DNA of 64,000 bases from an uncultured Microthrixaceae bacterium. GTDB lineage: Bacteria; Actinomycetota; Acidimicrobiia; Acidimicrobiales; Acidimicrobilacustridaceae. Position 1 is the stretch's first letter, and the number at the start of each line of letters is the position of its first letter. The notes below the pieces were generated by a model. It was not told the origin of the DNA. It ran no database searches and saw only the letters and a list, made by a program, of their open reading frames with translations. Position numbers and translations under genes: made by a program. Shown here piece after piece: positions 30,905 to 61,997 of the stretch. The DNA lies in NCBI GenBank assembly GCA_963773335.1, contig CAVZAT010000004.1, forward strand, positions 1,667,785 through 1,731,784, read 5' to 3'.

Positions 30905-30978
30905 CGGGCTGTAGCGCAGTTTGGCAGCGCGCTTCGTTCGGGACGAAGAGGCCGTGGGTTCAAATCCCGCCAGCCCGA
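30905..30978 (+). tRNA. tRNA-Pro (anticodon CGG), 74 nt, CCA not encoded.
   Basis: Manual cloverleaf: CGGGCTG TA GCGC AGTTTGGCA GCGC G CTTCG TTCGGGA CGAAG AGGCC GTGGG TTCAAAT CCCGC CAGCCCG A. Confidence 0.9.
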
Positions 30979-31173
30979 CTACAAACCGCAGGTCAGAGGT
31001 GTTGCTTGGCCACATATGGTGTGGCCAAGCAACGGCAGGGGGGCCCAATTGGGGGCCCAACTCGCCTCGTTTGGGCCCCCCGGCTTCGACAACTGCAGCC
31101 CGGTGACCAGCACATTCGCGACTGGCGGAGCGCTCAGAAGGTCGTGGTTCTTCGCCTGGTGCGAAGAGGTCAC
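30934..31173 (+). repeat. Left copy of a 240-nt imperfect direct repeat: last 45 nt of tRNA-Pro plus about 195 nt downstream. Putative attL.
   Basis: Collinear with 57547..57786. The tRNA part is 44/45 identical. The next roughly 115 nt are clearly similar. A second conserved block, CCTGGTGCGAAGAGGTCAC, lies at the same offset in both copies. Confidence 0.8.
31004..31030 (+). other. Perfect hairpin GCTTGGCCACA-TATGG-TGTGGCCAAGC, 26 nt downstream of tRNA-Pro.
   Basis: 11-bp stem. The same element, with a 9-bp stem, is conserved in the right repeat copy at 57621..57643. Confidence 0.6.
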
Positions 31174-31551
31174 GGACTCGTCGGAGGCGAAGTCTGACGA
31201 GCCAAGAGCCCGACTCGCGAGCGCTCCTTGACGTGTCGCTCGAGCAGACGCGGGGTCTGCTCCTCGAAACGCCCCGCTCTTCCCCCATCCTGACGAGCTG
31301 CTGGTCGACGGCCTCAGCGACGCTGAGGAAGCCACCTTCCTCGCTGCCATCGCCGACACCTGACCGTTAGCGATGGTGGCTCACCCGGGGTCGTCGAGCT
31401 GCGCGGGCCGAGCCGATGTCGACGCATACCTCGGCGGGTGGACGGCTCCGCTAATCCAGGCCGACTTGACCCCACAGGCAACCTGACCTGCCCTACAGGT
31501 TGGTTTCCATGGTGGGTGATGAGTCCGAGGCCTGACTGAAAGGCTTCGGCT

Positions 31552-31848
31552 GTGCCTCGTCCTTACCCTCCCGAGTTCCGTGCCCGTGCGATCGCGCTGG
31601 TCCGGTCGGGCAAGCAGGTGAAGCAGACCGCGTACGAACTCGGGATCAGCGCCGGGTGCTTACACAACTGGGTCAAGCAGGATCGGATCGACCGCGGTGA
31701 GCTGCCTGGGAAGACAACGGCTGAGTCAGCCGAACTTCGAGCGGCCCGTAAGCGGATCCGCGAGCTCGAGACTGAGCTGGCGATCGTGCGGCAGGCCGCG
31801 AAGTTCCTCGGCCCTGAGCCGCCACACCCAAAAGGATCCACCCGGTGA
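31552..31848 (+). CDS. IS3-family transposase OrfA (HTH).
   Basis: PRPYPPEFRARAIALVRSGKQVKQTAYELGISAGCLHNWVKQ, followed by a leucine-zipper-like region. Confidence 0.9.
   Translation: MPRPYPPEFRARAIALVRSGKQVKQTAYELGISAGCLHNWVKQDRIDRGELPGKTTAESAELRAARKRIRELETELAIVRQAAKFLGPEPPHPKGSTR
31827..31833 (+). promoter_or_regulatory. Programmed -1 ribosomal frameshift heptamer C CCA AAA (X XXY YYZ) joining OrfA to OrfB.
   Basis: In the orfA zero frame the codons are CAC CCA AAA. The orfB frame is open from 31818, that is, upstream of the heptamer. Confidence 0.65.
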
Positions 31849-32699
31849 TCGACCGTCTGGCTGACACCGGGATTCCCGTCGATCGTTGCTGCCAGGTGCT
31901 GGGGGTGTCCCGTCAGGGCTACTACCGCTACCGGCGCCGAGCGACCTCGGCCACCCAGCTGCGCCGCCAGTGGCTGACCGGCCTGATCCGCGAGATCCAC
32001 GTCGCGTCACGAGGGACCTACGGCTACCGACGGATCCACGCCGAACTGACGATGGCCATGAAGGTCCAGGTCAGCTCCCGGCTGGTGTCGGTGTTGATGA
32101 CCCAGGCTGGGATCTACGGCCTCCCCGGCCCGGCTCGGGTCAAGCGCCTCCGCGGGATCGTGACCGCCGATGATCTCGTGAACCGCAAGTTCCACCGCCT
32201 GCGACCCAACGAGCTCTGGATGACCGACATCACCGAGCACCCCACCCGAGAAGGCAAGCTCTACTGCGCGGCGGTGATGGACGCGTTCAGCCGTCGGATC
32301 GTCGGCTGGTCCATCGACTCGCGCCAAGACAGCTCCCTGGTCGTCAACGCACTCGACATGGCGATCCGCAACCGCCGCCGCGAACCCGGCGGAATCGTCC
32401 ACGCCGACCACGGCGTCCAATTCACATCGTGGGCCTTCAGCGACAAGATCCGCTCCGCCGGGCTCATGCCGTCCTTCGGCAGCGTCGGCGACGGGCTCGA
32501 CAACGCCATGATGGAAAGCTTCTGGTCCTCGATGCAGATCGAACTGCTCAACCGGCGCCGCTGGAAGACCCGGGTCGAGCTCGCCAACGCGATCTTCGAC
32601 TACATCGAGATCTTCCACAACCGCCAGCAGCGACACTCCTCCCTCGGCTACCGCACCCCCAACGAGTTCGAGCTTCTCAACGACACCATCCCCGCCTGA
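31845..32699 (+). CDS. IS3-family transposase OrfB (DDE integrase core), normally expressed as an OrfAB fusion.
   Basis: WMTDITEHPT..GKLYCAAVMDAFSRRIVGW, HADHGVQFTS, NAMMESFWSSMQIE. Intact. Confidence 0.9.
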   Translation: MIDRLADTGIPVDRCCQVLGVSRQGYYRYRRRATSATQLRRQWLTGLIREIHVASRGTYGYRRIHAELTMAMKVQVSSRLVSVLMTQAGIYGLPGPARVKRLRGIVTADDLVNRKFHRLRPNELWMTDITEHPTREGKLYCAAVMDAFSRRIVGWSIDSRQDSSLVVNALDMAIRNRRREPGGIVHADHGVQFTSWAFSDKIRSAGLMPSFGSVGDGLDNAMMESFWSSMQIELLNRRRWKTRVELANAIFDYIEIFHNRQQRHSSLGYRTPNEFELLNDTIPA

Positions 32700-32925
32700 T
32701 GACTCACCACCCAACCCGGAAACCAGGCCATAGGGCAGGTCAACCTGTGACCGAATCGTGCAGCAGACCCTTCCGATGAAGTGCTGAAAAGCGGTTCCCT
32801 CCACATCCACTCCGTTTTCTGCCAACCCCACCACTCCGCCGGGATCTGTCGGGCTCCGGCGCCGAGGGGGAACTAATCGTCGCGTGCGCCGATCGCGGTC
32901 GATCTGCCGACGTTGTCGATCCTCC

Positions 32926-34629
32926 TCAGGGCTGCTCGATCCACACCGACGTCATGAACGGGCTGATCATCGTCGGGGCGAACGCTCGATTCTCGGTCCC
33001 GGGGAACGTGGTCTTGGTGTAGCCGTGGACCTTGGGGATCGATGCGATCGCCCAGCGGGTGTGCACGAGGAAGATGCGGTCGAGGTTCGCCGCCATGCGC
33101 TTCTGGGCCTCGGCCCACGCCGCGATCTGCGTCGCCTGATCATCGGTGGCGCGGGCCTCGTCCATCGCAGCGACGAGCTTTGGGTCGTAGAGCTGGGTGT
33201 AGTTGAGCGAGATGCCATCCTCAACCGGTTTGCTCGCGACGAACGGGTAGCCCTTGTCGAGCGTGGGCGCCGACCACATCGCGAACGTCGACGCCTGGTA
33301 GTCGCCACCGATGACGCTGGTGATGTTGGCCGTCTGCGTGCCCGTCTCGATCTTCATGTCGATGCCGACCTCCTTCAGCGTCTGCTGGAGGTACTCGGCG
33401 ATGGTCACGAAGGTCGGATCAGAGTTCACCTTGAAACTGAATGCGAGGGGCTGGCCGTGCTCGCGCTGGTACTGCTCGGCGAGCTTTCGCGCTTTGGCCG
33501 GATCGGGGGACGGGTAGCCGGCCGTCTTCCGATCGATGTAGTAGGGCGAGCCCTTCTCGAAGTTGCCCCACGCCGCCGGGTACAGCCCGTTGTACGCGAT
33601 CTGCGAGATCGACTCCTGGTTGATGGCGTACGCCAGCGCCTGGCGGGCGACGAGGTCGTCGAAGGGCGCCTTGGCGGTGTTCAGGGCGATGACCGTCTCG
33701 TCGGCCTCCTGTCCGGCGTTCGTCAGCAGGTGGATCTCACCGGACTGCGCGCCAGGGAGGACCTTCTTGAGCAGCGCGCTGTCGAACACCTCGATCATGT
33801 CGACGTCGCCGGCGGATAGCGCCTCGCCCCGCAAGGTCGAGTCGGAGATGAACCGGAAGTCGATCCCGGCGAGGTGCGGCAACGCGGCCTGCCAGTAGTC
33901 CTTGTTCTTGACGACGCGGAGGCTCTGGCCCTGCTTGTGCGACTCGAACGTGAAGGGACCGGTGCCGACCGGGTCGGCGGTCGCCGGGTTGGGCGCGAGG
34001 AGCATCGCCGGCGCCGCCATGTACCCGGGTTGCAGGATCAAGGTCGACGGGAAGGTCGACCACGGCTTGCTGAAGAACAACTGGACGGTTCGATCGTCGG
34101 GTGTCTGGACGTCGGTCAAGTTGACGAACACCGCGCCGGCGAGGGCTGACTTGGCCATCAGGTCAAAGTTCAGCTTGACCGCGGCGGCGTCGAGCTTCTG
34201 GCCGTTCTGGAACCTGATGCCATCGCGCAGCCCGATGGTCCACTCGGTGAAGTCGGCGTTCGGCGTGAAGGACTTGGCGAGGTAGGGCTTCACCTTGCCG
34301 TCCGTGCCCAGCGCGGCGAGCGGATCGAAGATGGCGTTGGCCACGGTGTAGGTCGACGCGGTCCATTCCCCGATGGTCGGGTTGAGGCTGTTCGCCTCGA
34401 CCGAGAGCGCGTAGGTGAGCACCCCGCCCTCCTGCACCGGACCGGCATCGGCCTCCACCGTCGGCGTGTTGACCAACGAGTCGGCCGATGCCTGGGTGCT
34501 GGCGGGTTTGCTCGACCCGCTGCACGACGCAGCCAGCAGACCGGCCGCCACGACGACCGCGGCCGCCGACAACCCCCCGCACCTCCCGCCTCGACGACGG
34601 CGCCGGGCCTCACGACGTTGTTCCTGCAT
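32926..34629 (-). CDS. ABC-transporter substrate-binding lipoprotein, family 5 (peptide/nickel/opine type), orphan.
   Basis: RRRRRGG...LLAASC lipobox. AAGGGGGA lies upstream of ATG 34629. Intact, 567 aa. No permease or ATPase genes are nearby. Confidence 0.8.
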   Translation of the reverse strand: MQEQRREARRRRRGGRCGGLSAAAVVVAAGLLAASCSGSSKPASTQASADSLVNTPTVEADAGPVQEGGVLTYALSVEANSLNPTIGEWTASTYTVANAIFDPLAALGTDGKVKPYLAKSFTPNADFTEWTIGLRDGIRFQNGQKLDAAAVKLNFDLMAKSALAGAVFVNLTDVQTPDDRTVQLFFSKPWSTFPSTLILQPGYMAAPAMLLAPNPATADPVGTGPFTFESHKQGQSLRVVKNKDYWQAALPHLAGIDFRFISDSTLRGEALSAGDVDMIEVFDSALLKKVLPGAQSGEIHLLTNAGQEADETVIALNTAKAPFDDLVARQALAYAINQESISQIAYNGLYPAAWGNFEKGSPYYIDRKTAGYPSPDPAKARKLAEQYQREHGQPLAFSFKVNSDPTFVTIAEYLQQTLKEVGIDMKIETGTQTANITSVIGGDYQASTFAMWSAPTLDKGYPFVASKPVEDGISLNYTQLYDPKLVAAMDEARATDDQATQIAAWAEAQKRMAANLDRIFLVHTRWAIASIPKVHGYTKTTFPGTENRAFAPTMISPFMTSVWIEQP

Positions 34630-34753
34630 GTCCGTTTCCCCCTTCGGCCGTGCCCGCTCGACGCGGATCCCACCGGCCACCCATGGATCGATTGTTCGGT
34701 CAGCGCTCACGGTGGACTCGACACCTCCGGAGAGGTGCCGGTCAGAGCACGAG

Positions 34754-35882
34754 CTACTCGAGGTCGGCGACGAGTTTGGTGGCGGTGTCCACGTACTCCC
34801 CCACCATCTCCTGCACCACGGCCCTGGTGGTGTGGATCTGGTTCATGCGGCTCACGATCTGACCGACCGGCATGCCCACCAGCTCGCGGGGCGGGTTAGA
34901 GCCCATCTTCCGGTTGGCGTAGGCGTTGAGCATGAACTGCAGCGGCATGGGCAAGGTGCCCGGCGACTCCGGCGCCTCCCAGGCGTCGGTCCAGGCCGTT
35001 GCGCAGCTGGCGGGCGGGCTTGCCGGTGAAGGCGCGAGACCGGACGGTGTCGGTCGACGTGGCGGCGAGGAGCTTGTCGGTCACGACGCCGCCCTGCGTG
35101 TTCTCGGAGACGGTCAGCCAGATGGAACCGGTCCAGACGCCGTCGGCGCCGAGGGCCATGGCGGCGGCCATCTGGCGGCCAGTGCCGATGCCGCCGGCGG
35201 CCAGCACGGGCACCGGAGCCACCGCGTCGACCACGTCGGGGATGAGCACCATGCTGGCCACCTCGCCCGTGTGGCCACCGGCCTCGTAGCCCTGGGCGAT
35301 GATGATGTCCACGCCCTGCTGCACGTCTCGGACGGCCTGCTCGGCCCGGCCGATGAGCGCCGCCACCATGACGCCCTGCTCGTGAGCCTGGTCGATGGCC
35401 GCCTTGGGCGGGGGGCCGAGAGCGGAGGCGAGCAGCGCAATGTCGTGGGAGAGCGCGATCTCGATCTGCGGGCTGCCGGTGGCCTCGGTCCAGCCGAGCA
35501 CGCCGGCACCCATGCCGGATCCCGACTCCAGTTCGGCCTTGGGAACGGGCGTGACGCCGTGGTCGGCCAGGATCTTGTCGACGTAGTCCCAGTGCTCCTG
35601 GCTGATGTAATCCCGGAGCCGGGCACCCATGTCGTCGGTGTCGGCGATGCCCGCATCCCGGTCGACGGTCCGCACCGGCATGACGACGTCGACGCCGTAT
35701 GGCTTGCCGCCGACGTGCTCGTCGATCCACTTCAGCTCCAGCTCGAGCTGCTCGGGGGAGAAGGCCAGGGCCCCGAGCACGCCCATGCCGCCGGCGTTGG
35801 TCACCGCGGCGACGACGTCTCGGCAGTGGCTGAACGCGAACAGCGGGTACTCGATCCCGAACATCTCGGTCAGACGGTTCAT
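34754..35882 (-). pseudogene. Nitronate monooxygenase (NMO / 2-nitropropane dioxygenase family) with one frame break near 34992.
   Basis: MNRLTEMFGIEYPLFAFSH...IIAQGYEAGGHTG... reads to FTGKPARQLRN. The C-terminus (AWTDAWEAPESPGTLPMPLQFMLNAYANRKMG..., ORF 34754..34954) is one nucleotide out of frame. Confidence 0.75.
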
Positions 35883-37519
35883 GCCTGGCCCGCCTTCTCC
35901 GCGGCCGCGGGTCGGTCGGTGGCCGGGTCGCCCTCGGCGACCCGCTTGGCCCGGCGGTAGTCGGGCTTGCCGCTGGGGTGGCGGGGCATGGTGTCCACCA
36001 AGTGGAGCTCGCGGGGCACCTTGTAGCCGGCCACCCTCGTGCGGCAGTGCTCGGCCAGCTCGTCGAGCGTGGGTGCCTCGCCCGGCCGCGGTTCGACGAC
36101 GGCGGCCACCCGCTGGCCCCAGCGCTCGTCGGCCACGCCGACCACGAGGGCGTCGAACACCGCCGGGTGGGCCTTCAGGGCCGACTCGACCTCCTCGGGG
36201 TAGATCTTCTCGCCGCCCGAGTTGATGCACTGGCTGCCCCGACCGAGCAGCGTCATCGTGCCGTCGAGCTCGAGGCGGGCGAAGTCGCCGGGCACCGAGT
36301 AGCGGTTCCTGTCGACGGTGATGAAGGTCGCCGCGCTCTTCTCCGGGTCCTTGTAGTACTCGAGGGGCACGTTGCCGCCCCGGGCCATCCGCCCGACCTC
36401 GCCCGGCTGCACGGGCCGGTTCTGCTCGTCGATGACGATCGTGTCGGGCCCGCGGTTGACGTTGATGAGCCCCCCGGTGGCCGTGGTCGTGTTGTCCTTG
36501 TCGACGAGGCGCATCCCGTTGAAGCCGCTCTCGGAGGACCCGACCGCCTCGCTGACGAACAGGTTGGGGAGCAGCTCGAAGAGCTGGTCCTTCACCGCCG
36601 GCGAGAACACGGCCGCCGTGGAGCTGACGGCCACCAGCGACGACGTGTCGTAGGGGTGGGCCCGGAGGGCGTCGATCAGGGGGCGGGCCATGGCGTCGCC
36701 GGTGATGGCGAGGACCGCGATCCGGTAGTTCTCGATGGCCCGCCAGACGGCGTCGGCGTCGAAGTGCGGGAGCAGGACGCAGGTGGTGCCCTTGATGAGA
36801 CCCCCGAGCGTGCCCCACTGCGCGGCGCCGTGCATGAGCGGCGCCAGGATCAGGCCACACGAGGGTGCGGTGTCGGCGGCCAGGCGCGACATCTGGTGCT
36901 CGTCCTCGATGCGCACGCCGGTCATGAAGTCGATGCCGCCCCCGAGGACGCGCCACACGTCCTCGTGCCGCCACACCACACCCTTGGGGAAGCCCGTCGT
37001 GCCACCGGTGTAGAGGATGTAGATGTCGTCGTCAGAGCGGGGCGCGAAGTCCCGCTCGGGGGCCGAGCCCGCCAGGGCCTGCTCGTAGGACCGGGACCCG
37101 GCGCCGGGCTCGGTGCCGCTGCCGTCGTCCACCACCAGCACGTGGCGCAGCAGACCCAGCCGGGGCGCCACGGCGTCGACGAGCGGCGAGAACTGGGCCT
37201 GGTGGACGAGGGCGACCGAGTCGCTGTTGTCGAGCAGGTAGGCCAGCTCGTCCTTAACGTAGCGGTAGTTGACGTTGATCGGGACGGCCCGCAGCTTGTA
37301 GGCGGCGACCATGGTCTCGACGTACTCGATGCTGTTGTACGAGTAGATGGCAACGTGGTCGTTGCGGCCGATCCCCTGCTCGGACAGGTGGTGCGCGAGC
37401 CGGTTCGCCCGCTCCTCGAGCTGCCGGTAGGTCCGCTGCTCGTCCCCGCAGATGAGCGCGGCCCGGTCGGGCACGACGTCGATGGTGTGCTCGACGAAGT
37501 CGGCCAGGTTGAATGCCAT
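35879..37519 (-). CDS. Acyl-CoA synthetase, FadD19-like (steroid side-chain CoA ligase family).
   Basis: 546 aa, intact. MAFNLADFVEHTIDVVPDRAALICGDEQRTYRQLEERANRLAHHL..., YILYTGGTTGFPKGVVWRHEDVWRVL and SGKPDYRRAK match my recollection of mycobacterial FadD19 closely. The stop overlaps the NMO ATG. Confidence 0.7.
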   Translation of the reverse strand: MAFNLADFVEHTIDVVPDRAALICGDEQRTYRQLEERANRLAHHLSEQGIGRNDHVAIYSYNSIEYVETMVAAYKLRAVPINVNYRYVKDELAYLLDNSDSVALVHQAQFSPLVDAVAPRLGLLRHVLVVDDGSGTEPGAGSRSYEQALAGSAPERDFAPRSDDDIYILYTGGTTGFPKGVVWRHEDVWRVLGGGIDFMTGVRIEDEHQMSRLAADTAPSCGLILAPLMHGAAQWGTLGGLIKGTTCVLLPHFDADAVWRAIENYRIAVLAITGDAMARPLIDALRAHPYDTSSLVAVSSTAAVFSPAVKDQLFELLPNLFVSEAVGSSESGFNGMRLVDKDNTTTATGGLINVNRGPDTIVIDEQNRPVQPGEVGRMARGGNVPLEYYKDPEKSAATFITVDRNRYSVPGDFARLELDGTMTLLGRGSQCINSGGEKIYPEEVESALKAHPAVFDALVVGVADERWGQRVAAVVEPRPGEAPTLDELAEHCRTRVAGYKVPRELHLVDTMPRHPSGKPDYRRAKRVAEGDPATDRPAAAEKAGQA

Positions 37520-37527
37520 GCGGCCAG

Positions 37528-37541
37528 TAGAACACGTTATC
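37528..37541. promoter_or_regulatory. KstR-type operator-like box TAGAACACGTTATC.
   Basis: Fits TnnAACnnGTTnnA except at the last base. Lies 9 nt upstream of the fadD19-like start, in a 105-bp divergent intergenic region. Confidence 0.6.
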
Positions 37542-37620
37542 GCTCACCCGGCAACCGGCGTCTCCGTTCCGGTAAACACCCGACAGAATCAGGGGAAATC
37601 CGGACAGTGGCATCCGCAGG

Positions 37621-37634
37621 TAGAATGTGTTCTA
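37621..37634. promoter_or_regulatory. KstR-type operator-like box TAGAATGTGTTCTA (reverse complement TAGAACACATTCTA).
   Basis: Near-palindrome. Overlaps the first candidate ATG (37625) of the rightward DUF35-ltp-echA-cyp operon. Confidence 0.6.
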
Positions 37635-41650: not shown

Positions 41651-41655
41651 GATGG

Positions 41656-42893
41656 ATGTACAGAGATCAACCTGCTCGACCGGGACCGCTTCACCGAGGG
41701 CATCCCTCACGAGTGGTTCACCTAGCTGCGGGCCAACGACGCCGGTGCACTACCACCCCGAGCCCGACGGCCCGGGCTTCTGGGTGGTCACGAAGCACGC
41801 GGACGTGATCATCTGCAACCGCGACGCCGGCACCTTCTCGTCGGCCGCGTCGAGGGTGGCGTCGTCGGCCTCGAGGCTCGTGAGATCGACGAGCAGGAAG
41901 CGGCGATGACCGGGAACCTCATGCTCTACATGGACCCGCCCGACCACACCCGCTACCGCAAGCTGGTCAACCGCGGCTTCACGCCCCGCATGATCGGCAT
42001 GCTCGAGCCCCGCATCCGCGGAGCTCACCGCCCACATCCTCGACCGGGCGCTGCGCCAAGGACGCACCTGCGACTTCGTCGTCGACATCGCCGCCGAGCT
42101 GCCGCTCGAAGTCATCGCCGAGCTGATCGGCGTGCCCCACGAGGACCGCCACAAGATCTTCGACTGGATCGAACCGGATGGTCGGCTCCGAGGACCCCGA
42201 GTACCGAGTCACCGACGAGGAGGTCATCGACGGCCCAGGTCGAGATGTTCACGCTACGCCCAGCAGCTCGCGCGAGAAGCGCCGGGCCAAGCCGGAAGAC
42301 GACATCATCACCGCGCTGCTGAGCGCCGAGGTCGACGGCGAGTCGCTGTCCGACATGGACTTCAACCTGTTCTTCCTGCTGCTTGTCGGTTGCCGGCAAC
42401 GAGACGACCCGCAACGCCATCGCCCACGGCATGAACGCCTTCCTCGAGAACCCCGACGAGTACGAGCTGCTGGTCGACGAACCCGAGCCGCTAGCCACCG
42501 GGCGCGCGTCGGAGGAGATCCTGCGCTGGGCGACGCCGGTCATGTACTTCCGCCGCAACGCCACGCAGCGACGCCGAGTTGCGGCGGCCAGCAGATCCGG
42601 GCGGGCGACAAGATCAGCCTCTGGTACGTCTCGGCCAACCGCGACGAGGACGTGTTCGACGACCCGTTCCGCTTCGACATCAGCCGCTGACCCGAACAAC
42701 CACATCGCCTTCGGCGGGGGCGGGCCGCACTTCTGCCTCGGCGCCCAGCTGGCCCGGCATGGAGATCCAGGTGCTCTTCGAGGAGCTGGCCGAGCCGCTT
42801 CCCCAGGGTCGAGGCGCTCGGGCCCGCCCGACCGGCTCGCGGTCGAACTTCATCGGCGGCATCAAGCACCTGCCGGTGCGGCCGTCGGCCTAG
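41656..42893 (+). pseudogene. Cytochrome P450, CYP125/CYP124-like (steroid side-chain hydroxylase family). Many frame breaks plus an in-frame TAG.
   Basis: Recognisable blocks are scattered over three frames: INLLDRDRFTEGIPHEWFT-TAG-LRAND, PVHYHPEPDGPGFWVVTKHADV, LYMDPPDHTRYRKLVNRGFTPR, ELPLEVIAELIGVPHEDRHKIFDW, MVGSEDPEY, AGNETTRNAIAHGMNAF, EILRWATPVMYFRRNAT, FGGGGPHFCLGAQLAR (haem Cys), RSNFIGGIKHLPV. Confidence 0.75.
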
Positions 42894-42964
42894 GTTGGAC
42901 TACAGGATCCGGCCTTTCCATGACCTCCCGTAGACCCACCGGGACCATCGCGTAAGATCGAGGC

Positions 42965-43612
42965 GTGACGTTGGCCGATACCACCATCTCCGAGCTGACC
43001 CCGGAGCGCAGGAGCGTCGGCGGCGGCTCATCGAGGCGGCCTTCGAGCTGAGCGCCGAGGGCGGCTACGACGCCGTGCAGATGCGCGACGTGTCCATCAC
43101 GGCCAACGTGGCCCTGGCGACGATCTACCGGTACTTCTCGTCGAAGGACGATCTGCTCGGCCGCGGCCATGACCGAGTGGACCGCCCGGCTCCGCGACCG
43201 GGTGGCGCAGTCGCCGCCGCGCGGCGACACCCGGGTCGGACCAGCTCGCCGACATGCTGAGCCGGGCGTGCCACGCGATGCAACGCCAACCCAAGTTGAG
43301 CAAGGCGCTGGTGCGCGCGCTGGCTCGTCGGCCGACACCGGCGTGGCCGCCAGCGGGGCCGACGTGCAGGAGCAGATCGCTGCGATGGGCAATGAGATCC
43401 TGGCCGACCTCGACCCACACCCGGGCCGACATCCTCGGCGGCCATCGGCCACGTCTGGTACTCGACGCTGGTGGCGTGGGCCAACGGCCGGAGAGACTTC
43501 TCGTCGGTCGAACACCGAGCTCGAACGAGCCGCCCGCGTGCTGATCACCCCCTACGAGCAGCAGGTCGACGCGAACCGATCGCGGGACGATGGCGAGCGG
43601 TTGCCGCGCTAG
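42965..43612 (+). pseudogene. kstR: TetR-family repressor, KstR-like, multiply frameshifted.
   Basis: RRRLIEAAFELSAEGGYDAVQMRDVSITANVALATIYRYFSSKDDLL, AMQRQPKLSKALVRAL and GHVWYSTLVAWANGRRDFSSV...LERAARVLI parallel my recollection of M. tuberculosis KstR block by block. The blocks lie in different frames. Confidence 0.6.
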
Positions 43613-45157
43613 ATGGCCCGGTCGCGGCCTTCCCAGTAGGGATCGCGCAGCTTTCGTTTGAAGAGCTTGCCGGAGGGGTCCCGCGGCATGGTCCTCGATG
43701 AAGTCGATGGACTTCGGCTGTTTGAACTTGCCGAGACGATCGGCCAGGTAGGCGTAGATCGACTCGCGTAGTGCGTCGTCGGGCTCGACGCCGGGGGCGG
43801 GCTCGCACGACGGCTTTGATCTCCTCGCCCCAGTCCTCGTGGGGGATTCCGAACACGGCGACGTCGTCCACCCGGGGGCGCCGATCATCACACCCTCGAT
43901 CTCGGCAGGGTAGATGTTCACGCCGCCCGAGATGATCATGTCGGACTTGCGATCGCTAGGAACAGGTAGCCGTCCGTCGTCACAGGTACCCAAGTCGCCG
44001 ACTGTGAAGAAGCCGGCCCTGCGGTTCCCTTGGTCTTGGCGGGGTCCTTGTAGTACTCGAAGTCGGCCTGGGCGAGCACATGTAGACCGTGCCATCGGTG
44101 CCGGCGGGCAACTCTTGTGGTCGTCGTCGAGGATCCTGATCTCGCGACCCGTCCAGGCCATCCCCACCGAGCCGGGCTTCTCCAGCCACTCGTCGGCGGT
44201 GATGACGGTGCCGCCGCCTTCGGTCGCCGCGTAGTACTCGTAGATGACGCGCCCCACCAGTCGATCATCTCCCGCTTGATTCGGGCGGGCAGGGCGCTGC
44301 GGCATGGACCATCGAGCGCAGGCAGCACATGTCGTATCGGCCCCGCACGTCCTCGGGCAGGGCGAGCAGCCGGTGGAACTGCGTCGGCACCATGTGGCTG
44401 TTGGTGACTTTGTGGCGTCGATCAGCTCGATCATGCTCTCGGGGGTCCACCGATCCATCAGCACGAGCTGATGGCCCAGGTGCAACGAGCCCGACGCGAA
44501 GGCCAGCACGGCGGTGTGGTAGAGCGGCGAGCCGCACAGGTGGACGCTGCCGTCGTGGGCCTGGGTGCCGAAGAGCCGGAGCAGGAAGCTCGCTGCGACC
44601 GCGGCGGTCGTCGGGTTCGGCGCCCTACAGCTTGCGGCAAACGCCCTTGGGCTTCCCCGTCGTCCCTGACGTGTAGTGCATGGCCGCGCCCGTGGAACGG
44701 TCGTCGGGCGCGGTGCGGGCTGACCGTCGGTGAGCTCGGCCTAGGGGCGGAACCCCGGCACCTCACCGACGCTGAAGCGCCGATCCGCGGGCGAGGCCGA
44801 GTCGGTCGCCGCCACCTGGCAGGCCTCGCCGAAGCGCTCGTGGACGACGAGGGCGTCGGCCTCGCAGTCGTCGACGATGTAGGCGATCTCCGGGCCCACG
44901 AGGTGGTGGTTGATCGGGGTGATGTACCAGCCGGCCTGGGTGGCCGCGAAGTACAGCGCCAGCATCTCGATGCTGTTCGGCAGCACCGCGGCGATCCCGT
45001 CGCCCTCCCGCAGGCCGAGGGCCCGCAGGCCGTGCACCAGCCGGTTCGCCTGGGCGTGCAGGTCCCCGTGGGTGATCTCGCGCCCGTCGGGGTCGATTGC
45101 GGCCAGCCGCCCCGGGTCTTCCTGGGCCAGCGGCCAGAACCCCGTCGTCTCGCTCAT
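43609..45157 (-). pseudogene. AMP-dependent acyl-CoA synthetase (FadD-type), heavily degraded.
   Basis: The N-terminal 138 aa are intact (MSETTGFWPLAQ...LPNSIEMLALYFAATQAGWYITPINHHL). After that, AMHYTSGTTGKPKGV, YEYYAATEGGG, DMIISGGVNIYPAEIEG and FIEDLPRDPSGKLFKRKLRD are recoverable only through many frame changes, and in-frame stops are present. Confidence 0.75.
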
Positions 45158-46326: not shown

Positions 46327-46340
46327 GTCCACGTCCCAAG

Positions 46341-46354
46341 TAGAACACATTCTC
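46341..46354. promoter_or_regulatory. KstR-type operator-like box TAGAACACATTCTC.
   Basis: Lies 15 nt upstream of the fadE ATG. 13/14 identical to the reverse complement of the box at 37621..37634. Confidence 0.6.
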
Positions 46355-46427
46355 GTCCACGACGTCTGTTGAAATGGCCCATCTGGAGAAGAACGCGTTC
46401 TTGTGAGATCCGAGATCGTCGACCCCA

Positions 46428-47297
46428 CTACCGCTTGATGATCGGACGATGACCCCAGAAGCTGGGCTTGGTGATCTGGTAGGTCGCCGTCGCCGTCACG
46501 TCGTCGATGTGGAGGCCTCCCCAGCCCGCCTCGACCATGAAGCCGTCCGGCGTCTGGCAGTAGAACGAGATCATCTGATCGTTCGTGTGGCGCCCCAGCC
46601 CCATGACGACGGGCACGTCGTGATCGAGGCAGCGGTCCTGGGCCCGGCCGACGTCGTCGATCGTGGCCATCTCGACCATGAAGTGCCGCAGCAGCCCGGG
46701 CGCCGGCAATCCGCAACCGAACGCAAGGGTGTGGTGACGGGGGTTGCACCCGAGAAAGGCCATCGACATGTCGCCCAGGTACCAGGTGTTCCGCAGGTGG
46801 AACCCGAGATGGTCTCGATAGAAGTCGATCGACTCGTCGAGGTCGGGGACGGTGATGACGACGTGGCCGAACCCCATCTCGCCGGTGACGAAGCCCGACA
46901 CGAGCGGCGTCTGCGGCGCTTCGTGGTTCAAGATCGGACCGTGGAAGAGCTCGATCGGCCCTCCCGCGGGATCCTCGAACGACGCGAATCCGCTCACCAG
47001 CCGGTGGGCGGCCTCGTCGGCCGAGCCGAGCTCCACCGCGATGCCGGCCGCCTCGAGCGTCTCCACCAGCGCACGGAGATCACGGTCGTCGCCGACCTCG
47101 AAGCCGATCGCCGCCACCGACGCCTCGTCCCCCGGAGCGAGCATCAGCCGATAGGGATAGTCGTCCCAGCGGTAGTACTGCGCGTCCTCGTCGGGGCCCG
47201 ACGACGGCATGAGGCCGAGCACGTCGGTGGCGAACGTACGCCACGCGTCGAGGTTGGGAGTTCGCAGGTGCAGATATCCGAGCGACAGCACTGGCAT
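46428..47297 (-). CDS. Type I extradiol ring-cleavage dioxygenase (HsaC/BphC-like).
   Basis: MPVLSLGYLHL...FGHVVITVPDLDESIDFYRDHLGF...FLGCNPRHHTLAF...LGRHTNDQMISFY. Intact. Confidence 0.75.
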   Translation of the reverse strand: MPVLSLGYLHLRTPNLDAWRTFATDVLGLMPSSGPDEDAQYYRWDDYPYRLMLAPGDEASVAAIGFEVGDDRDLRALVETLEAAGIAVELGSADEAAHRLVSGFASFEDPAGGPIELFHGPILNHEAPQTPLVSGFVTGEMGFGHVVITVPDLDESIDFYRDHLGFHLRNTWYLGDMSMAFLGCNPRHHTLAFGCGLPAPGLLRHFMVEMATIDDVGRAQDRCLDHDVPVVMGLGRHTNDQMISFYCQTPDGFMVEAGWGGLHIDDVTATATYQITKPSFWGHRPIIKR

Positions 47298-47436
47298 GGA
47301 GAACCTCCGATCGGTACCGCCGCACGCTACGGGGCGGCGCACCCGCTCGCGTCGGCGGGATGCCGCTGGATGGAACTCGGGAAGGGCCGGCGTTGCATCG
47401 ATGCCGGAATCCGGTGGGCCGGCGCACGATCGTCGG

Positions 47437-49262: not shown

Positions 49263-49263
49263 C

Positions 49264-50169: not shown

Positions 50170-50259
50170 GAGTCGATCCTCGTCCTCGCACGAGCCGCGG
50201 GCACACGCTGGTACCACCCAGCGGGATTGCACCGCACGGGCGCGTTCACCTCCCCTTGC

Positions 50260-51947: not shown

Positions 51948-53119
51948 CAGAGCGTCATCGCCGCCGGGCCCTGCGGGGGCAGACCCATCATCACGCCGGC
52001 GGCACCGTCGTAGACCCCACCGGCCACGAATATCCCGTGGTGCAGACCGGCGTGCACGCCGCGCCAGAACCGCTGGACCGACGTGTCGCGGCGAATCGAG
52101 TTGCCGCCGCAGACGGCGTAGACATCGTCGGCCGCCTTGGCCGCCCGCCAGGCGGCGCGTACCTGATCGCGGCGACAGGCGACCCGCTGCTGCAGGGGGA
52201 CGTCGTGCCCGGCGTCGAGCGCGTCGTACATCTCGCCGATGTTGAACAACAGCTGGGTGCGTGAACCGCGGATGTCGGCCGCGGCCTCACCGATGATGGC
52301 GCGGGAGTAGGAGTCCGACACCTGGGCCACACCCAGCGTGCTCACGCGGCTCTTCTGGTACTCGATGCCCTGCTTGAGCACCCCTTCGGCGATCCCCACC
52401 AGCGCCGCCGACACGGCGCACGGGAACATCACGGTCCAGGGCAGGCGGTACAGGGGCTGGGTGCGACCGGAGTCGATGGCGGCCCGACCGGTGACGACGG
52501 TGGCGAGGTCAAGGGTGCGGTAGGTGGGGATGAAGGCGTCTCGGACCACGATGTCCTTGCTCCCGGTCCCCTCGAGACCGATCACGTCCCACGAGTCGTG
52601 GACGATCTCGTAGTCGCCGCGAGGGAGCATCACGTGCAACATGGCGATCGGCCCGGCGTCCTCGCCGGTGACCTTGGCGCCGAGCACGATCCAGTCGCAC
52701 AGGTCGGTGCCCGACGAGAACTTCCACCGGCCGTTGAGCACGTACCCGCCGTCGGTCCGCGTCGCGGTCCCGCTGGGCGCGTACGGCGAGGCGACCCAGG
52801 TGTCGGGGTCCTCACCCCACACCTCCTCCTGCAGACGGCGGTCGTTGAACGCCAGCTCCCACGGGTGCACGCCGACCACGCCGGAGACCCATCCGGCCGA
52901 CGGGCACCAGTTCCCGACATCCATCACCGCGGCGAGGAAGTCGCGGGGATCGGCCTCGTAGCCACCGAAGTCGGCCGGCTGGAGAAGGCGCACCACGCCG
53001 CACTCCTTCAGCGCCTTGCCTGTCTCGTCGGGCAGCCGGCCGAGCTCATCGGCGGCCTCGGAGCTCTCGGCGAGGAAGCTCCCCGCCTCCTCGATCTTGG
53101 TCCGGACGTCGTGCGTCAC
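51947..53119 (-). CDS. hsaA: Flavin-dependent monooxygenase oxygenase component, acyl-CoA-dehydrogenase fold (HsaA-like).
   Basis: LGRLPDETGKALKECGVVRLLQPADFGG...AGWVSGVVGVHPWELAFNDRRLQEEVWGEDPDTWVASPYAP...GGYVLNGRWKFSSG...RRDQVRA...QRFWRGVHAG parallels my recollection of HsaA. GAGGAG lies upstream of GTG 53119. Confidence 0.65.
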   Translation of the reverse strand: MTHDVRTKIEEAGSFLAESSEAADELGRLPDETGKALKECGVVRLLQPADFGGYEADPRDFLAAVMDVGNWCPSAGWVSGVVGVHPWELAFNDRRLQEEVWGEDPDTWVASPYAPSGTATRTDGGYVLNGRWKFSSGTDLCDWIVLGAKVTGEDAGPIAMLHVMLPRGDYEIVHDSWDVIGLEGTGSKDIVVRDAFIPTYRTLDLATVVTGRAAIDSGRTQPLYRLPWTVMFPCAVSAALVGIAEGVLKQGIEYQKSRVSTLGVAQVSDSYSRAIIGEAAADIRGSRTQLLFNIGEMYDALDAGHDVPLQQRVACRRDQVRAAWRAAKAADDVYAVCGGNSIRRDTSVQRFWRGVHAGLHHGIFVAGGVYDGAAGVMMGLPPQGPAAMTL

Positions 53120-53279
53120 CTTGGTGCTCCTCGTGATCGGCCGGCCACTGCGGACCGACTGGCGCGGTCCGGGGGTGCGTCGGCTCCCCCGGAGTGGTTG
53201 TAACCGACGCGGACGCCGGCCAGATCCGGACCCTCCCGCCCACCGGGATCCCGTGGCGCAGCCGCACGGTCGGTCCGGA

Positions 53280-53879
53280 TCACGGGCCCTCCAGCATCTG
53301 CACGCAGGCGGCGACGATGCCGTCGACCAGGTCGTCCCACTGCTCGTAGGGCTGCTCGGCGGGCGCGGCGACGAACTCGGCGATCGCGTGCACGACGAGG
53401 CTGCCGCACAGCCACCGACGCTGGCTGCGCAGGGCGCGGGACAGCACCGGCAGACGGGCATCGATCTGGTCACGCACGTGCAGGAAGCTGTTCGTTCGCG
53501 GCAGCGCGTGGGAGACCAGATGGCTGTAGCGGTGACTGACCCGCAGCTGAGCGAAGAAGCCGATGTAGTGCTCGTGGCACCGACTCGCCTCGGCCAGCGG
53601 CACGACCACCGCCCGCATCAGCTCCTCGATCGTCGGGTCGGGGCCGAGGGCGGCGACCATCTCGGCACGACGGCGGTCGATGGGACCCATGCGCCGATCG
53701 AGGACCGCCTCGATGATCCCCTCTCGCGTCTTGAAGTGGTACTGGGCCGCGTTGTTGTTCCCCTGCCCGGCGCCGACGCTGATCTCGCGCATCGAGACCC
53801 CATCCGCGCCGTGCTCGGCCATCAGCTGCTCGGCCGCGTCGAGCAGGAGCTCGCGGGTGTCGGCCGCGTCCCGAGGCAC
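53280..53879 (-). CDS. TetR/AcrR-family transcriptional regulator.
   Basis: TRELLLDAAEQLMAEHGADGVSMREISVGAGQGNNNAAQYHFKTREGIIEAVL. Intact. Divergent from the tauD-like gene. Confidence 0.8.
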   Translation of the reverse strand: MPRDAADTRELLLDAAEQLMAEHGADGVSMREISVGAGQGNNNAAQYHFKTREGIIEAVLDRRMGPIDRRRAEMVAALGPDPTIEELMRAVVVPLAEASRCHEHYIGFFAQLRVSHRYSHLVSHALPRTNSFLHVRDQIDARLPVLSRALRSQRRWLCGSLVVHAIAEFVAAPAEQPYEQWDDLVDGIVAACVQMLEGP

Positions 53880-53940
53880 TACCGGTGCTCCGACAGGGCG
53901 CTGACGACCACTTGCGTGCGGAGTCGACCGACGGCATGAT

Positions 53941-53958
53941 GCGAAGTAAGCATTTCGC
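53941..53958. promoter_or_regulatory. Imperfect palindrome GCGAAGTAAGCATTTCGC in the TetR / tauD-like divergent intergenic region. Candidate operator.
   Basis: GCGAA...TTCGC arms. Located in the most AT-rich stretch of the 113-bp spacer. Confidence 0.35.
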
Positions 53959-53992
53959 TTATCTCTATCGCAGAACCAGCAGGAGGTCAACC

Positions 53993-54935
53993 ATGGGCGA
54001 CAGCGCGGTCGGTGCGCCGGAGTTCCACATCGAGGTCGTCCCTCTCTCCAAGCACACCGGAGCAGAGATCCGGGGGGTGGACCTCTCGTCCGAGCTCGAC
54101 GACGAGACCATCCGCCGCATCCGAGACGCGCTGCTGCGCTGGAAGGTCGTCTTCTTCCGCCACCAGCACCTCTCGCGAGACGCGCACGTCGCGCTGGGCT
54201 CGCGCTTCGGTGAGGTCGTCGGTGGCCACCCGACGTTGCCGCCCCGCTTCCCCGAGCGGCCCGAGATCCTCGTCGTCGAGAAGGACCCGCAGAGCGACGC
54301 ACCCGACGGTGCCGCCATCGACCATCGCTGGCACACCGACATCACCTACCTCGACGCGCCGCCCATGGGCTCGATCCTTCGCGCCGTGGAAGTTCCTCCC
54401 TACGGCGCCGACACCGAGTGGACCAACCTCGCCGCCGCCTACGCCGCCCTCTCCGAACCGGTGCGATCGATGATCGACGGGTTCACCGCCGTGCACGAGA
54501 ACGTGCTGCACCTCGTCCGGGGCGAGCCGACCCCGACGATGCGCGCCTTCATGGCCAAGCGGCTCCGCGCCCTCCACCCGGTCGTCACCATCCACCCCGA
54601 GACCGGTGAGCGGATCCTGTACGTCAATCCCGACTACACGGCCTACATCGTGGAGCTGTCGCGACGCGAGAGCAACCACCTCCTCGCCTGCCTCAACGAA
54701 CACCTGAGCGGGCGTGAGTTCACGGTCCGGTACCGGTGGGAGGCCGGCGACGTGGCGTTCTGGGACAACCGGTCGACGGCGCACGTCGCACCGAACGACG
54801 TGCCCGAGGGCTACCACCGGGAGATGGAGCGGATCACGCTGACCGGCACGAGGCCCGTCGGCGTGAACGGGGAGGTGTCGCGGTCCGCTCGAGGAGGATG
54901 CCGTCACGGCGACGGGCGACGGCGGGCCCCGATGA
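53993..54935 (+). pseudogene. TauD/TfdA-family Fe(II)/2-oxoglutarate dioxygenase (taurine dioxygenase / AtsK-like), with a probable single frame break near its 3' end.
   Basis: AGGAGG lies 7 nt upstream of ATG 53993. HRWHTDITYLDAPPMGSILRAVEVPPYGADTEW and WDNRSTAHVA motifs. The +1 frame ends in a TGA (54933..54935) that forms ATGA with the sulfatase ATG. Confidence 0.7.
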
Positions 54936-57212
54936 GCGACGGACGGGCGGCCTTCGGTGGTCACGTCGGCCGAACCGCGGGCGAGTCGACGCCCTGGTGG
55001 CCCGAGCCCGTCCGACCGGGACCGGAAAGCCCGAACGTCGTGTTGATCCTGCTCGACGACATGGGCTTCAGCGACGTCGCTCCCTTCGGCTCCGAGATCC
55101 CCACGCCCACGATCGACCGGCTGGCGGCCCGCGGGATCCGTTTCACCAACTACCACACGACCCCGCTCTGCTCCCCGTCCCGCGCCGCGATCCAGACCGG
55201 GCTGAACCCCCACCGTGCCGGGTTCGCCGGCGTCGCCAACTTCGACCCGGGCTTCCCGGGCTGGACGATGGAGATCAGTCCCGACATCGCCACCCTGCCC
55301 GAGGTCCTGCGGTCCGCGGGGTACGCGACCTACGCGGTGGGCAAGTGGCACCTCACCCGGGACGCCGCGATGAACGACGGCGCCGATCACGGCTCCTGGC
55401 CGGTCCAGCGGGGCTTCGACCGGTTCTACGGCATCTTGGAGGGCTGGACGAACCTGCACCAGCCGCACCGGCTCGTCCGGGACAACTCGCCGGTCGATGT
55501 CGACACCTACCCGGACGGCTACTACTTCACCGACGACATCACCGACGAGGCGATCGGCTACCTGAAGGGCCTGCGATCTCACGACGCCGAGCGCCCCTTC
55601 TTCCTGTACCTGGCGCACGGCGCCGTGCACGGACCCCTGCAGGCGAAGGCCGACGACATCGCCCGCCACCGCGGTCGGTACGACCGGGGCTGGGACACCA
55701 TCCGGCGCGAGCGGTTCGAGCGCCAGAAGCAGCTCGGACTCTTTCCCGCCGACACGACGATGGCCGCACGCAACAGCGAGGCCGGCCATGAGGTGCTGCC
55801 GTGGGACGACTACGCCGAGGAGGAGCAGGCGCGGTTCGCCCGCTACATGGAGGTGTACGCGGCGATGGTCGACAACGTCGACCAGAACCTGGCCCGGCTG
55901 CTGGAGGTGATCGAGGCCCTGGGGGATCTCGACAACACGGTGGTCGTCTTCACCTCCGACAACGGCGCCACCGAAGAAGGCGGTCCCACCGGGTCTCGGA
56001 GCTACTTCAAGCAGTTCGGCGGCTTCCGCGGGCTGACGGGCTGGGACGGCGACGTCACCCGCGACCCCGACCTGATCGGCGGGCCTCGCACCCTCGTGCA
56101 CTACCCGCGGGGCTGGGGGATGGCGTCGAACACACCGTTCCGGCTCTACAAGTCCTCGACCCACGCCGGCGGCGTGCGGGTCCCCATGATCGTGTCGTGG
56201 CCCGGCGGCATCCCGGCCCAGCACCACGGCGGGACCCGAACCCAGTACCAGTACGTGACCGACCTGTTCCCGACGATCCTGGAGTTGGCCGGTGTCGGTA
56301 CGCCCCAGGACCGCGACGGTTTCAGCTTCGCCGAGGCAGTGCGACGCGGCGCCGAGACCAGCACCCATCTCGAGCAGTACTCGGAGTGCTTCGGAAACCG
56401 GAGCTTCTACCGCGACGGTTGGAAGCTCGTGGCGCTCCACCCCCGCGGTGCACCCTACGACGGCAGCGACTGGGAGCTCTACGACCTCGGCACCGATCCG
56501 ACCGAGACGACCGACCTCGCGTCGACCCGACCGGAGATGGTCGACCAGCTCACCGAGGCGTGGGAGCGCGCCGCCGCACGAGAACCTCGTGTTCCCCCTC
56601 GACGACGGCACCGGGCTGCTCCAGCTGCTGCGTCGCCCCGACGAGGAGGCGTTCTACCGCGAGCTGCGGATCCTGCCCGGAACACCGACCCTGGAGCGCT
56701 ACCGATCGCAGAAGCTCATCGCCCTGCGGGACTTCGCGATCGAAGTCGAGCTCGTCCATCGCCCCGAGGATCAAGGCGTGCTGGTGGCCCACGGCGACCA
56801 GGGCGGCGGCTACACCCTCTACGTCGAGGACGGCGTGCTGACGTTCGGATACAACGAGTACGGCGTGATGCGCTACATCGAGGGCGGCGGTCTCGCCGCC
56901 GGCGCTCGCCGCGTCGCGCTCCGCGCCAGGACCGGTGCTCGATTCACGTGGGACTTCGAGCTCGCGGTCGACGGTTCCGCCGCGGGTGCGCTCGAGGGTG
57001 CCGAGATGTTGATCGGCTTCGCGCCGTTCCAAGGCATCGACGTCGGCATCGACCGCAGGTCGCCCGTGGTCTGGTCAGTGTTCGAGGAGCACGGTACGTT
57101 CCCCTATACGGGGGACCTGCTCGCCGTCACCTACCGACCGGGAGCGCCCGCGCCCTACGACCCTCAACATCTGGTCGAAGGGATGCGGTCGGCCGGACGG
57201 CAGCGGCAATAG
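54932..57212 (+). pseudogene. Arylsulfatase-family (formylglycine-dependent) sulfatase with one frame break near 56578.
   Basis: PNVVLILLDDMGFSD and TPLCSPSRAAIQTG (C-x-P-x-R). ...WERAA then shifts frame to HENLVFPLDDG... (ORF 56292..57212). Confidence 0.75.
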
Positions 57213-57221
57213 CCACCAGCC

Positions 57222-57463
57222 CTGATGTCGTCGCCTACTACGCCTGGCGCATGGCCCAGCTCGATCTCGAGTCCGGTCCTCCGCGCCTCCGCAAAGGCGC
57301 CGGTCGCTACCCCCAGCCCGTCGCGCTCCTCGCCCGACTCGGCGTGCACGTCGACCACGAAGGTCGGGGTATCGGCGCCGGCCTCCTCGTAGATGTCGTC
57401 ACCCGCCTCGTCGACCTCAGCGACGACATAGGGGCTGAGACGGGTCGAGGGGGCCGAGCCTGA
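57222..57463 (+). pseudogene. Remnant of a GNAT-family acetyltransferase (TA-toxin-like), truncated at both ends.
   Basis: VVAYYAWRMAQLDLES...RYPQPVALLARLGVHVDHEGRGIGAGLLVDVVTRL. Confidence 0.4.
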
Positions 57464-57546
57464 CCCGTCACGGACCGCAATGGACGCCTGACCTCTTCTA
57501 CCAGGACCTCTACGACCTGGAGCGGACGACAGTGGATGGCTTGGTC

Positions 57547-57786
57547 TCGTTCGGGACGAAGAGGTCGTGGGTTCAAATCCCGCCAGCCCGACTCACAAAC
57601 ATGCAGGTCAGCAGTGCCAGTTGGCCACACATGGTGTGGCCAAGCAACCGCAGGAGGGTCCAGATGGTGGCCCAACTGCCGACTCTGGGCCCCCACACAC
57701 GATGGAGCGCAGCGCTGTGACCAGCGGGTTTGTGCTTCTGCCAGCGCCCTTCCGACATTGGTCTTCACCTGGTGCGAAGAGGTCAC
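57547..57786 (+). repeat. Right copy of the 240-nt imperfect direct repeat. Begins with a 45-nt tRNA-Pro 3' fragment at 57547..57591. Putative attR.
   Basis: TCGTTCGGGACGAAGAGGTCGTGGGTTCAAATCCCGCCAGCCCGA has one mismatch against 30934..30978. No tRNA 5' half lies upstream. The downstream similarity includes the hairpin at 57621..57643. Confidence 0.8.
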
Positions 57787-59140: not shown

Positions 59141-59223
59141 TGTTCGGATGCTGGTTCGAGTGTGCGTGCATACCGGCCCGACGACAAGGTGAGAACAGTC
59201 GTCCGCGATGGTAGAAAACGGAC

Positions 59224-61961: not shown

Positions 61962-61997
61962 CCCGGTCACGACGAGACCCGGTCGTGACAGCTCCGT

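Follow-up and report, generated by a model that had tools for sequence, protein, structure and literature searches.

A 26.6-kb catabolic segment between long direct repeats at tRNA-Pro(CGG) of an uncultured Acidimicrobiales bacterium: a probable integrase-less island remnant

We analyzed a stretch of 64,000 nucleotides (nt) of contig CAVZAT010000004.1 from an uncultured Acidimicrobiales bacterium (assembly GCA_963773335.1); this whole stretch is referred to below as the window. Within it, a segment of approximately 26.6 kb lies between two direct repeats at a tRNA-Pro(CGG) gene, which is the only tRNA in the window according to both ARAGORN and Rfam. An earlier note, made from the sequence alone, had described such a segment, and its coordinates proved to be correct. 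The segment carries a cluster of catabolic genes and has no detectable recombinase other than that of one insertion sequence (IS). With modest confidence, we regard it as an integrase-less remnant resembling a cis-mobilizable element (CIME) within an accretion array, the long repeats being the arms of element attachment (att) sites.

Direct repeats at tRNA-Pro(CGG) and the locus in relatives

The last 47 nt of the tRNA (30934-30980) recur in direct orientation 26,613 nt downstream (57547-57593), with identity at 46 of 47 positions. A tRNA 5' half was sought in front of the downstream fragment and was absent; the earlier note had likewise described a recurring tRNA 3' end with one mismatch and no 5' half. 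Repeat identity begins at 30934, i.e., at the third base of the 5' strand of the anticodon stem, which agrees with the recognized sublocations of islands in tRNA genes (anticodon loop, T loop or acceptor junction). Beyond the tRNA end, a further 191 nt of each copy (30981-31171 and 57594-57784) could be aligned at 72% identity (145/202). The global alignment score of these arms was 82.5, compared with -4.0 +/- 5.6 for shuffled sequences (z about 15), placing the similarity of the two repeat units far above chance. The alignment also substantiated the proposal that some 195 nt past the tRNA share a hairpin (31001-31033 and 57621-57648) and an end block at the same offset: the block TCTTCrCCTGGTGCGAAGAGGTCAC closes both copies (31149-31173 and 57762-57786). 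Fainter similarity extends past the arms, to about 31221 and 57836.

Conservation is significantly higher in the tRNA part (46/47) than in the arm (145/202; Fisher p = 3e-5). Such a step in identity, with 98% on the tRNA side and 72% on the arm side, is expected of copies that come from different lineages and not of a local duplication. The sole mismatch in the tRNA part is a C at 30952, in the variable loop, found in the left copy only; the right copy and the relatives L002, L008 and L013 have a T. This left-only mismatch would fit an attL site that had received its core from incoming DNA. Separately, a 48-nt sequence 300 nt past the right repeat (58087-58134) matches the central part of the left arm (31072-31119) at 73% identity, with GACCAGCACATTCGC matched exactly, and may be a relic of another arm copy.

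For the response-regulator gene directly to the left of the tRNA, the best homologues come from Acidimicrobiales (including Rhabdothermincola and many metagenome-assembled genomes), at up to 88% identity. The left flank as a whole, in the order WhiB, NfeD, ArsA, ArsA, STAS, response regulator and tRNA-Pro, shows synteny to several metagenomic contigs, with nucleotide identities of 75-85%. In one of these, L013 (81% flank identity), collinearity with the window extends through the flank, the tRNA, the arm, a small open reading frame (ORF) of 56 amino acids (aa) and the point at which an IS3-family element sits in the window, and for 28 nt more. This collinearity defines a post-tRNA module of approximately 535 nt and shows the IS3 element to be a later insertion. 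After the module, L013 has different genes, and the 24-kb cargo of the window is absent. Among those genes, a MazE-like antitoxin and its 142-aa partner (L013 5636-6294) are another toxin-antitoxin pair in the variable region.

The 24-kb cargo is also absent from L002 (85% flank identity). In this contig the tRNA and a full arm are followed by 2.3 kb of unrelated DNA, then by a 93-nt sequence (the P arm) that is 84% identical to 57454-57546 of the window, and by a perfect 49/49 tRNA fragment. After the fragment come 62 nt of the arm, a deletion and the small-ORF region, which is 86% identical to 31247-31348. The layout of L002 is that of an island with the same two ends and different content, and its second junction is of the arm-core-arm type, like an attP site, with element-type sequence on both sides. 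Taken together, the cargo-free L013 and L002 identify the segment as a variable insertion at the tRNA-Pro site. In the more distant relatives L008, L010, L011/12 and L014, tRNA-Pro is present and the arm is absent. Given that the post-tRNA sequence differs in every genome compared, the site is an integration hot spot. In L011 (11041-11117) and L012 (2199-2275), the orientation of tRNA-Pro(CGG) relative to the response-regulator gene is reversed, and an additional 173-aa ORF separates the two.

Table 1. Features of the tRNA-Pro(CGG) locus, in window coordinates
Feature	Position	Strand	Evidence or remark
tRNA-Pro(CGG), intact	30905-30979	+	ARAGORN; Rfam RF00005, 65.7 bits
Core-like site 1 = anticodon stem-loop, CTTCG-TTCGGGA-CGAAGAGGcC	30932-30953	+	pattern search
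Left repeat unit (putative attL side): 47 nt of tRNA 3' part and ~195-nt arm	30934-31173	+	
Conserved hairpin 1, GTTGCTTGGCCACA-TATGG-TGTGGCCAAGCAAC	31001-31033	+	22 nt past tRNA end
GGGGGCCCAA motif, two direct copies and one inverted (hairpin 2)	31039-31080	+	
Core-like site 2, CTTCG-CCTGGTG-CGAAGAGGTC	31150-31171	+	218 nt after site 1
Small conserved ORF remnant (...DELLVDGLSDAEEATFLAAIADT*)	31232-31363	+	1-nt frameshift relative to 56-aa ORF of L013
IS3-family insertion sequence	31484-32742	+	Pfam HTH_Tnp_1 and rve; 42-nt inverted repeats
IS3 orfA; orfB	31552-31848; 31845-32699	+	HTH_Tnp_1 orfA overlaps rve orfB
Last 28 nt of post-tRNA module common to L013	32743-32770	+	89% identity; collinearity with relatives stops here
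Cargo	32771-57232	.	Pfam, NCBIfam
TacT-type GNAT toxin fragment, residues ~61-127 of ~170-aa protein	57233-57463	+	
P arm, 93 nt directly 5' of tRNA fragment	57454-57546	+	conserved with L002 13370-13463
Right-copy core-like sites 1' and 2'	57545-57566; 57763-57784	+	pattern search
Right repeat unit: displaced tRNA 3' fragment (57547-57593) and 195-nt arm	57547-57786	+	
Right-flank module: extradiol dioxygenase (-), AraC regulator (+)	58277-60072	- and +	Pfam, NCBIfam

The arms themselves are structured. The sequence CTTCG-N7-CGAAGAGGTC, i.e., the anticodon stem-loop and the bases after it, stands at both ends of each repeat unit, with a spacing of 218 nt in both window copies and of 217 nt in L002. 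A pattern search allowing up to two mismatches (<=2) found six matches in all, compared with 0.27 expected, of which four are the ends of the two repeat units. Site 2 sits within an inverted repeat, GTGACC...GGTCAC. Judged by their layout of inverted pentamers around a 7-nt spacer, these sites are candidate core recombination sites. The stem of hairpin 1, as predicted by RNAalifold, is retained in four sequences and is nearly invariant, and for that reason gives no covariation evidence. The GGGGGCCCAA motif is not enriched in the window by itself; it is the clustering of its copies inside the arm that stands out, and they could be putative protein-binding sites. An RNA gene in the arm was considered and rejected, as there was no Rfam match, the stems were too invariant for covariation, and neither consensus promoters nor convincing terminators were seen.

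The core of the palindrome, TTGGCCACAcATGGTGTGGCCAA (31005-31029 and 57620-57644), was also observed in two unrelated actinobacterial contigs, L001 (4520-4542) and L009 (11137-11158), where it forms the center of longer hairpins with differing outer stems. A terminator-like or protein-binding palindrome of wide occurrence is one possibility. A search of genome and metagenome contigs with the hairpin core returned only these unrelated terminator-like palindromes, which share the central 23 nt, and a search of viral contigs with the hairpin, the P arm and site 2 gave no matches. The P arm and core match L002 in one contiguous 207-nt alignment at 83.6% identity (E = 2e-49). The 56-aa small ORF had no homologue among 5.8 billion proteins other than that of L013 itself, and no match in Pfam or the PDB. 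We had considered the small ORF as the remnant of a TacA/DUF1778 antitoxin paired with the TacT fragment, and dropped this idea for lack of Pfam or PDB support.

Contents and surroundings of the segment

The IS3-family element, the sole mobility gene that the earlier note had placed near the left repeat, was indeed found there, starting 311 nt after it. All IS3-family features that were tested are present, and the element is flanked by a 3-bp target duplication, ACC (31481-31483 and 32743-32745). By these marks it is taken to be a later simple insertion. It did not create the boundary, since it has its own 3-bp duplication and L013 is collinear across it. Pfam was applied to essentially all ORFs of at least 90 aa and to a six-frame translation of 41.4-45.15 kb, a region in which only gene fragments are present. 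Within this scope, no Phage_integrase or other recombinase domain was detected apart from the IS3 rve domain, in agreement with the absence of an integrase from the island as first proposed. Pfam likewise revealed no int, xis, relaxase, tra, replication initiator or FtsK-like domains in the island, and no recombinase domains in the ten left-flank ORFs scanned. In the left flank, an IS21-like element was observed at 3262-5627; it consists of a 531-aa ORF with a Mu-transposase C-terminal domain and an overlapping 257-aa ORF (4854-5627).

The presumed debris of a GNAT toxin at the right end was recognized by phmmer against the PDB (6g96_B, E = 1.5e-5; 5fvj_A, E = 3.4e-5), with Pfam giving only E = 0.06-0.12. 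The gene is partial: the full-length fold of approximately 170 aa is lacking, and no DUF1778 antitoxin was found near the fragment in Pfam or PDB searches. Its stop codon falls where the conserved P arm starts.

The cargo begins with an SBP_bac_5 binding protein, an NMO/IpdC-like reductase, an acyl-CoA synthetase and two DUF35/ChsH2-OB proteins. These are followed by two Ltp2-type thiolase-like proteins, an enoyl-CoA hydratase (ECH), a P450, a TetR regulator, a second AMP-ligase and an acyl-CoA dehydrogenase (ACAD), and then by an HsaC/BphC-like dioxygenase, an IclR regulator and a lower pathway of the DmpG/DmpF/MhpD type. HsaD-like and HsaA-like proteins, a second TetR, a TauD-family dioxygenase and an arylsulfatase complete the series. 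Two NCBIfam models scored above their cut-offs, i.e., PRK07798 for the acyl-CoA synthetase and PRK07937 for an Ltp2-type protein. HsaA, HsaC and HsaD were the best NCBIfam matches of their genes at scores below the equivalog cut-offs (378 < 450, 274 < 450 and 279 < 400, respectively), and BphC scored equally to HsaC for the dioxygenase. The description of the cargo as a steroid-type cluster with sulfatase genes, as given in the earlier note, therefore suits the Hsa/Ltp2/ChsH-type, TauD-family and arylsulfatase genes that were found, and is fair but unproven. The cargo resembles actinobacterial steroid clusters (hsaACD, hsaEFG, ltp2/chsH, fadD and a kstR-like TetR) in its HsaA, HsaC and HsaD best matches, its Ltp2-type protein and PRK07798, and further in its DUF35/ChsH2-OB, NMO, ECH, ACAD and P450 genes. 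Unlike such clusters, it has no KshA/B or KstD that we could see, and many of its genes are broken by frame changes.

Frame changes affect the aldolase, acetaldehyde dehydrogenase, hydratase, thiolase-like, AMP-ligase and sulfatase genes, and also a GH15 gene outside the segment. The P450 switches frame at least seven times in 1.2 kb with its canonical motifs intact. The region 41800-45150, in which the motifs of the P450, TetR and AMP-ligase are intact and spread over many frames, looks like a patch of poor consensus, possibly from low coverage or strain heterogeneity. Compared with L003, the core gene nfeD (26383-27704, - strand) likewise has two 1-nt insertions (about 27306 and 27068), neither of which lies within a homopolymer, and these distribute it over three frames. 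This pattern suggests long-read consensus indel errors rather than old pseudogenes, and for that reason we make no claim that the cargo is either decaying or functional. An enrichment of pseudogenes, initially entertained as the mark of a decaying island, was withdrawn on the same grounds, i.e., the frameshifted core nfeD and the P450 motifs preserved over at least seven switches.

Several further ORFs are unusual. At 53885-57463, a single 1192-aa ORF comprises a complete TauD-family domain, a sulfatase domain and then the GNAT fragment, which could reflect either lost stop codons or indel errors; the sulfatase C-terminal region resumes in another frame at 56580-57212. The ORF at 56292-57212 was rejected as an unrecognized mobility gene. 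It has no Pfam or NCBIfam match, and its sequence resembles the arylsulfatase C-terminus read in a different frame. A 648-aa ORF in the left flank (11431-13377) holds both beta-type and alpha-type domains of electron-transfer flavoprotein (ETF) and may be a fusion or have lost a stop codon. The GH15 glucoamylase/trehalase-like gene in the right flank (61696-63822, - strand) changes frame near 62450-62620.

The dioxygenase of the right-flank module (58277-59140) is a paralogue of the HsaC/BphC-type gene of the island (46428-47342), local segments of the two being 75-81% identical at the nucleotide level. Contig L015 is 88.8% identical to the window over 58288-60099 only, and the module lies in a different neighborhood there. 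The right flank also lacks the GGDEF-asd-ask-PPIase genes that are seen downstream in the distant relatives. Judged by these comparisons, the 6 kb past the right copy are mosaic DNA and not conserved core. The earlier note had proposed a comparison of base and k-mer composition inside and outside the island. The guanine-plus-cytosine (GC) content of the window is about 0.70, and the island itself is close to its host (GC 0.696 versus 0.704; tetranucleotide r 0.935). It is instead the region at 56-62 kb that deviates most, with a GC content of 0.667 and tetranucleotide r of 0.82-0.84, versus 0.89-0.96 for left-flank chunks.

Origin of the segment

Under the reading that we favor, 30980-57546 would be the remnant of an integrative element that entered tRNA-Pro(CGG) by recombination of the tyrosine-integrase type at the anticodon loop. 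The intact tRNA and the sequence following it would then constitute attL, with the 3' part of the tRNA from 30934 onwards supplied by the inserted DNA, while the displaced 47-nt tRNA fragment, preceded by the conserved 93-nt P arm, would form the other junction. In one Acidimicrobiales lineage, a small family of related elements would share this tRNA as their target, and the similarity of approximately 195 nt would represent the P' arm of their attachment site. The right copy would be an internal arm-core-arm junction between two accreted segments rather than original host sequence. Mobility would at best depend on an integrase acting in trans, as for a CIME, because the element encodes no recombinase. 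Both repeat units are intact, including both of their core-like sites, as would be required of retained att sites. The absence of the arm from distant relatives, the second junction of L002 and the non-core right flank suggest that element arms of a tandem array may account for both copies; these three points, together with site 2, are the reasons for our preference.

Several observations weigh against this reading. The L002 junction has the P arm, core, arm and small-ORF region, whereas the right copy in the window has only the P arm and the 195-nt arm; the small-ORF region follows the arm in three copies but not in this one. No integrase of the family was found in the window, L002 or L013, so that site-specific entry is inferred from the scars that it would have left. 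The host-like composition of the island lends no independent support to a foreign origin. Neither a third repeat copy nor a terminal attR was present in the window, which ends 6 kb past the right copy, and the relatives compared were metagenomic contigs of other species, with no empty site from the same species among them. Finally, the arm is known from three genomes of one lineage, and its divergence (pairwise identities of 65-74%) roughly tracks that of the genomes, a pattern that a native sequence passed on vertically would explain equally well. Since the pairwise identities are star-like within this range, arm phylogeny cannot tell which copy would be native.

The strongest competing explanation, which we consider possible though clearly less probable, is that of a single island. 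Here the right arm (57594-57786) would be the original downstream sequence of the host, and the attP site of the element would have carried a diverged homologue, captured, for example, by imprecise excision from an earlier host. The restriction of the arm to a narrow lineage and its divergence in parallel with the genomes speak for this view, as do the lineage-typical T in the tRNA part of the right copy and the small ORF without a homologue elsewhere, which is what one would expect of lineage-specific chromosomal DNA. For this to hold, however, the elements of the window and of L002 would have to belong to a family that brings along as much as ~535 nt of host-like DNA, a small ORF among it. 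Moreover, the core of the second copy in L002 is flanked by element-type sequence on either side, the right flank in the window is mosaic and compositionally deviant, and the resemblance of site 2 to a core recombination site is easier to understand if it lies in an att arm. The suggestion of the earlier note that the incoming element brought a diverged copy of the region downstream of the tRNA is a less probable reading of the two homologous arms, both of which may instead be arms of elements.

A more speculative alternative, to which we give little credence, is that the unit of approximately 340 nt made up of the P arm, the tRNA 3' half and the 195-nt arm serves as the reusable double-site boundary of a cassette-like array, with the recombinase encoded elsewhere and either core usable. 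If this were true, the long repeat would be a functional double-site attachment module and not a scar.

Still less probable is an origin without any site-specific integration, in which an ancient local duplication of the tRNA-Pro region, or a second tRNA-Pro gene, decayed to a 3' fragment, and unrelated DNA gathered between the copies through IS activity and illegitimate recombination. The failure to find an integrase and the proximity of the IS3 element, 311 nt from the left repeat, would agree with this, and 57508-57546 bears a weak, non-significant resemblance to the tRNA 5' half. An unselected pseudo-copy should, however, decay evenly, in contrast to the 46/47 identity of the tRNA part next to 72% in the adjoining sequence (p = 3e-5), and the repeat starts exactly in the anticodon stem. 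The IS3 element is a simple insertion across which L013 remains collinear, and the same P arm precedes the tRNA fragment in L002. Lastly, a chimeric join in a long-read metagenome assembly that placed a foreign block between similar sequences is very improbable: the sequence is error-prone (two 1-nt insertions in nfeD, at least seven frame switches in the 1.2-kb P450) and the closest relatives come from Flye-style long-read assemblies, but repeats that are 72% identical outside the 47 nt are too diverged to mislead an assembler, the independent assembly of L002 has the same arm-core-arm architecture, and neither the IS3 target duplication nor the collinearity with L013 is disrupted.

Comparison with known systems

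Elements of the pSAM2 type, which are integrative and conjugative elements (ICEs) of actinomycetes, integrate into a tRNA-Pro gene. To our knowledge, mobile elements have barely been described in Acidimicrobiales, a poorly cultured order of actinobacteria. Compared with the pSAM2 type on the basis of its description only, the segment is alike in its actinobacterial host, its tRNA-Pro target and the att identity over the tRNA 3' part. It differs in having no int, xis, rep or FtsK-like tra genes and in its catabolic cargo.

The Islander collection comprises tyrosine-integrase islands in tRNA and tmRNA genes, including those at anticodon-centered class A sites, whose attP sites normally measure about 250 bp (PMC4383910). 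Like these islands, the segment has an intact tRNA at one end and a direct, displaced 3' fragment starting from the anticodon stem at the other, a length of 26.6 kb (range 2-200 kb), and an occupancy that varies among relatives. Unlike them, it has no integrase inside or adjoining it, and the similarity of its ends continues for ~195 nt past the tRNA; the Islander integrase filter would reject it because there is no integrase gene.

CIMEs and tandem accretion have been documented in the ICESt1/ICESt3 family of Streptococcus thermophilus and in the accretion of pathogenicity islands in Streptomyces (PMC5704250). The present locus resembles such arrays in the internal att junction of L002, with its element-type arms on both sides, and in the differing cargo between homologous ends. 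It departs from them in that no partner ICE, integrative and mobilizable element (IME) or integrase was seen, in that the array of the window is itself inferred, and in its uncultured Acidimicrobiales host. If our reading is correct, the locus documents both the accretion of tRNA-targeted islands and an integrase-less catabolic island in Acidimicrobiales, and supplies a concrete recombination module, i.e., a P arm, a core and an arm with a second core-like site. No general concept is changed, as islands in tRNA genes, CIMEs and tandem arrays are already well known. Set beside these systems, the segment is a genomic island of a common kind, with a boundary that is slightly out of the ordinary. 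It is a genuine, well-delimited remnant of an island in a tRNA gene, without an integrase, and its attachment module exceeds the usual in both length and structure.

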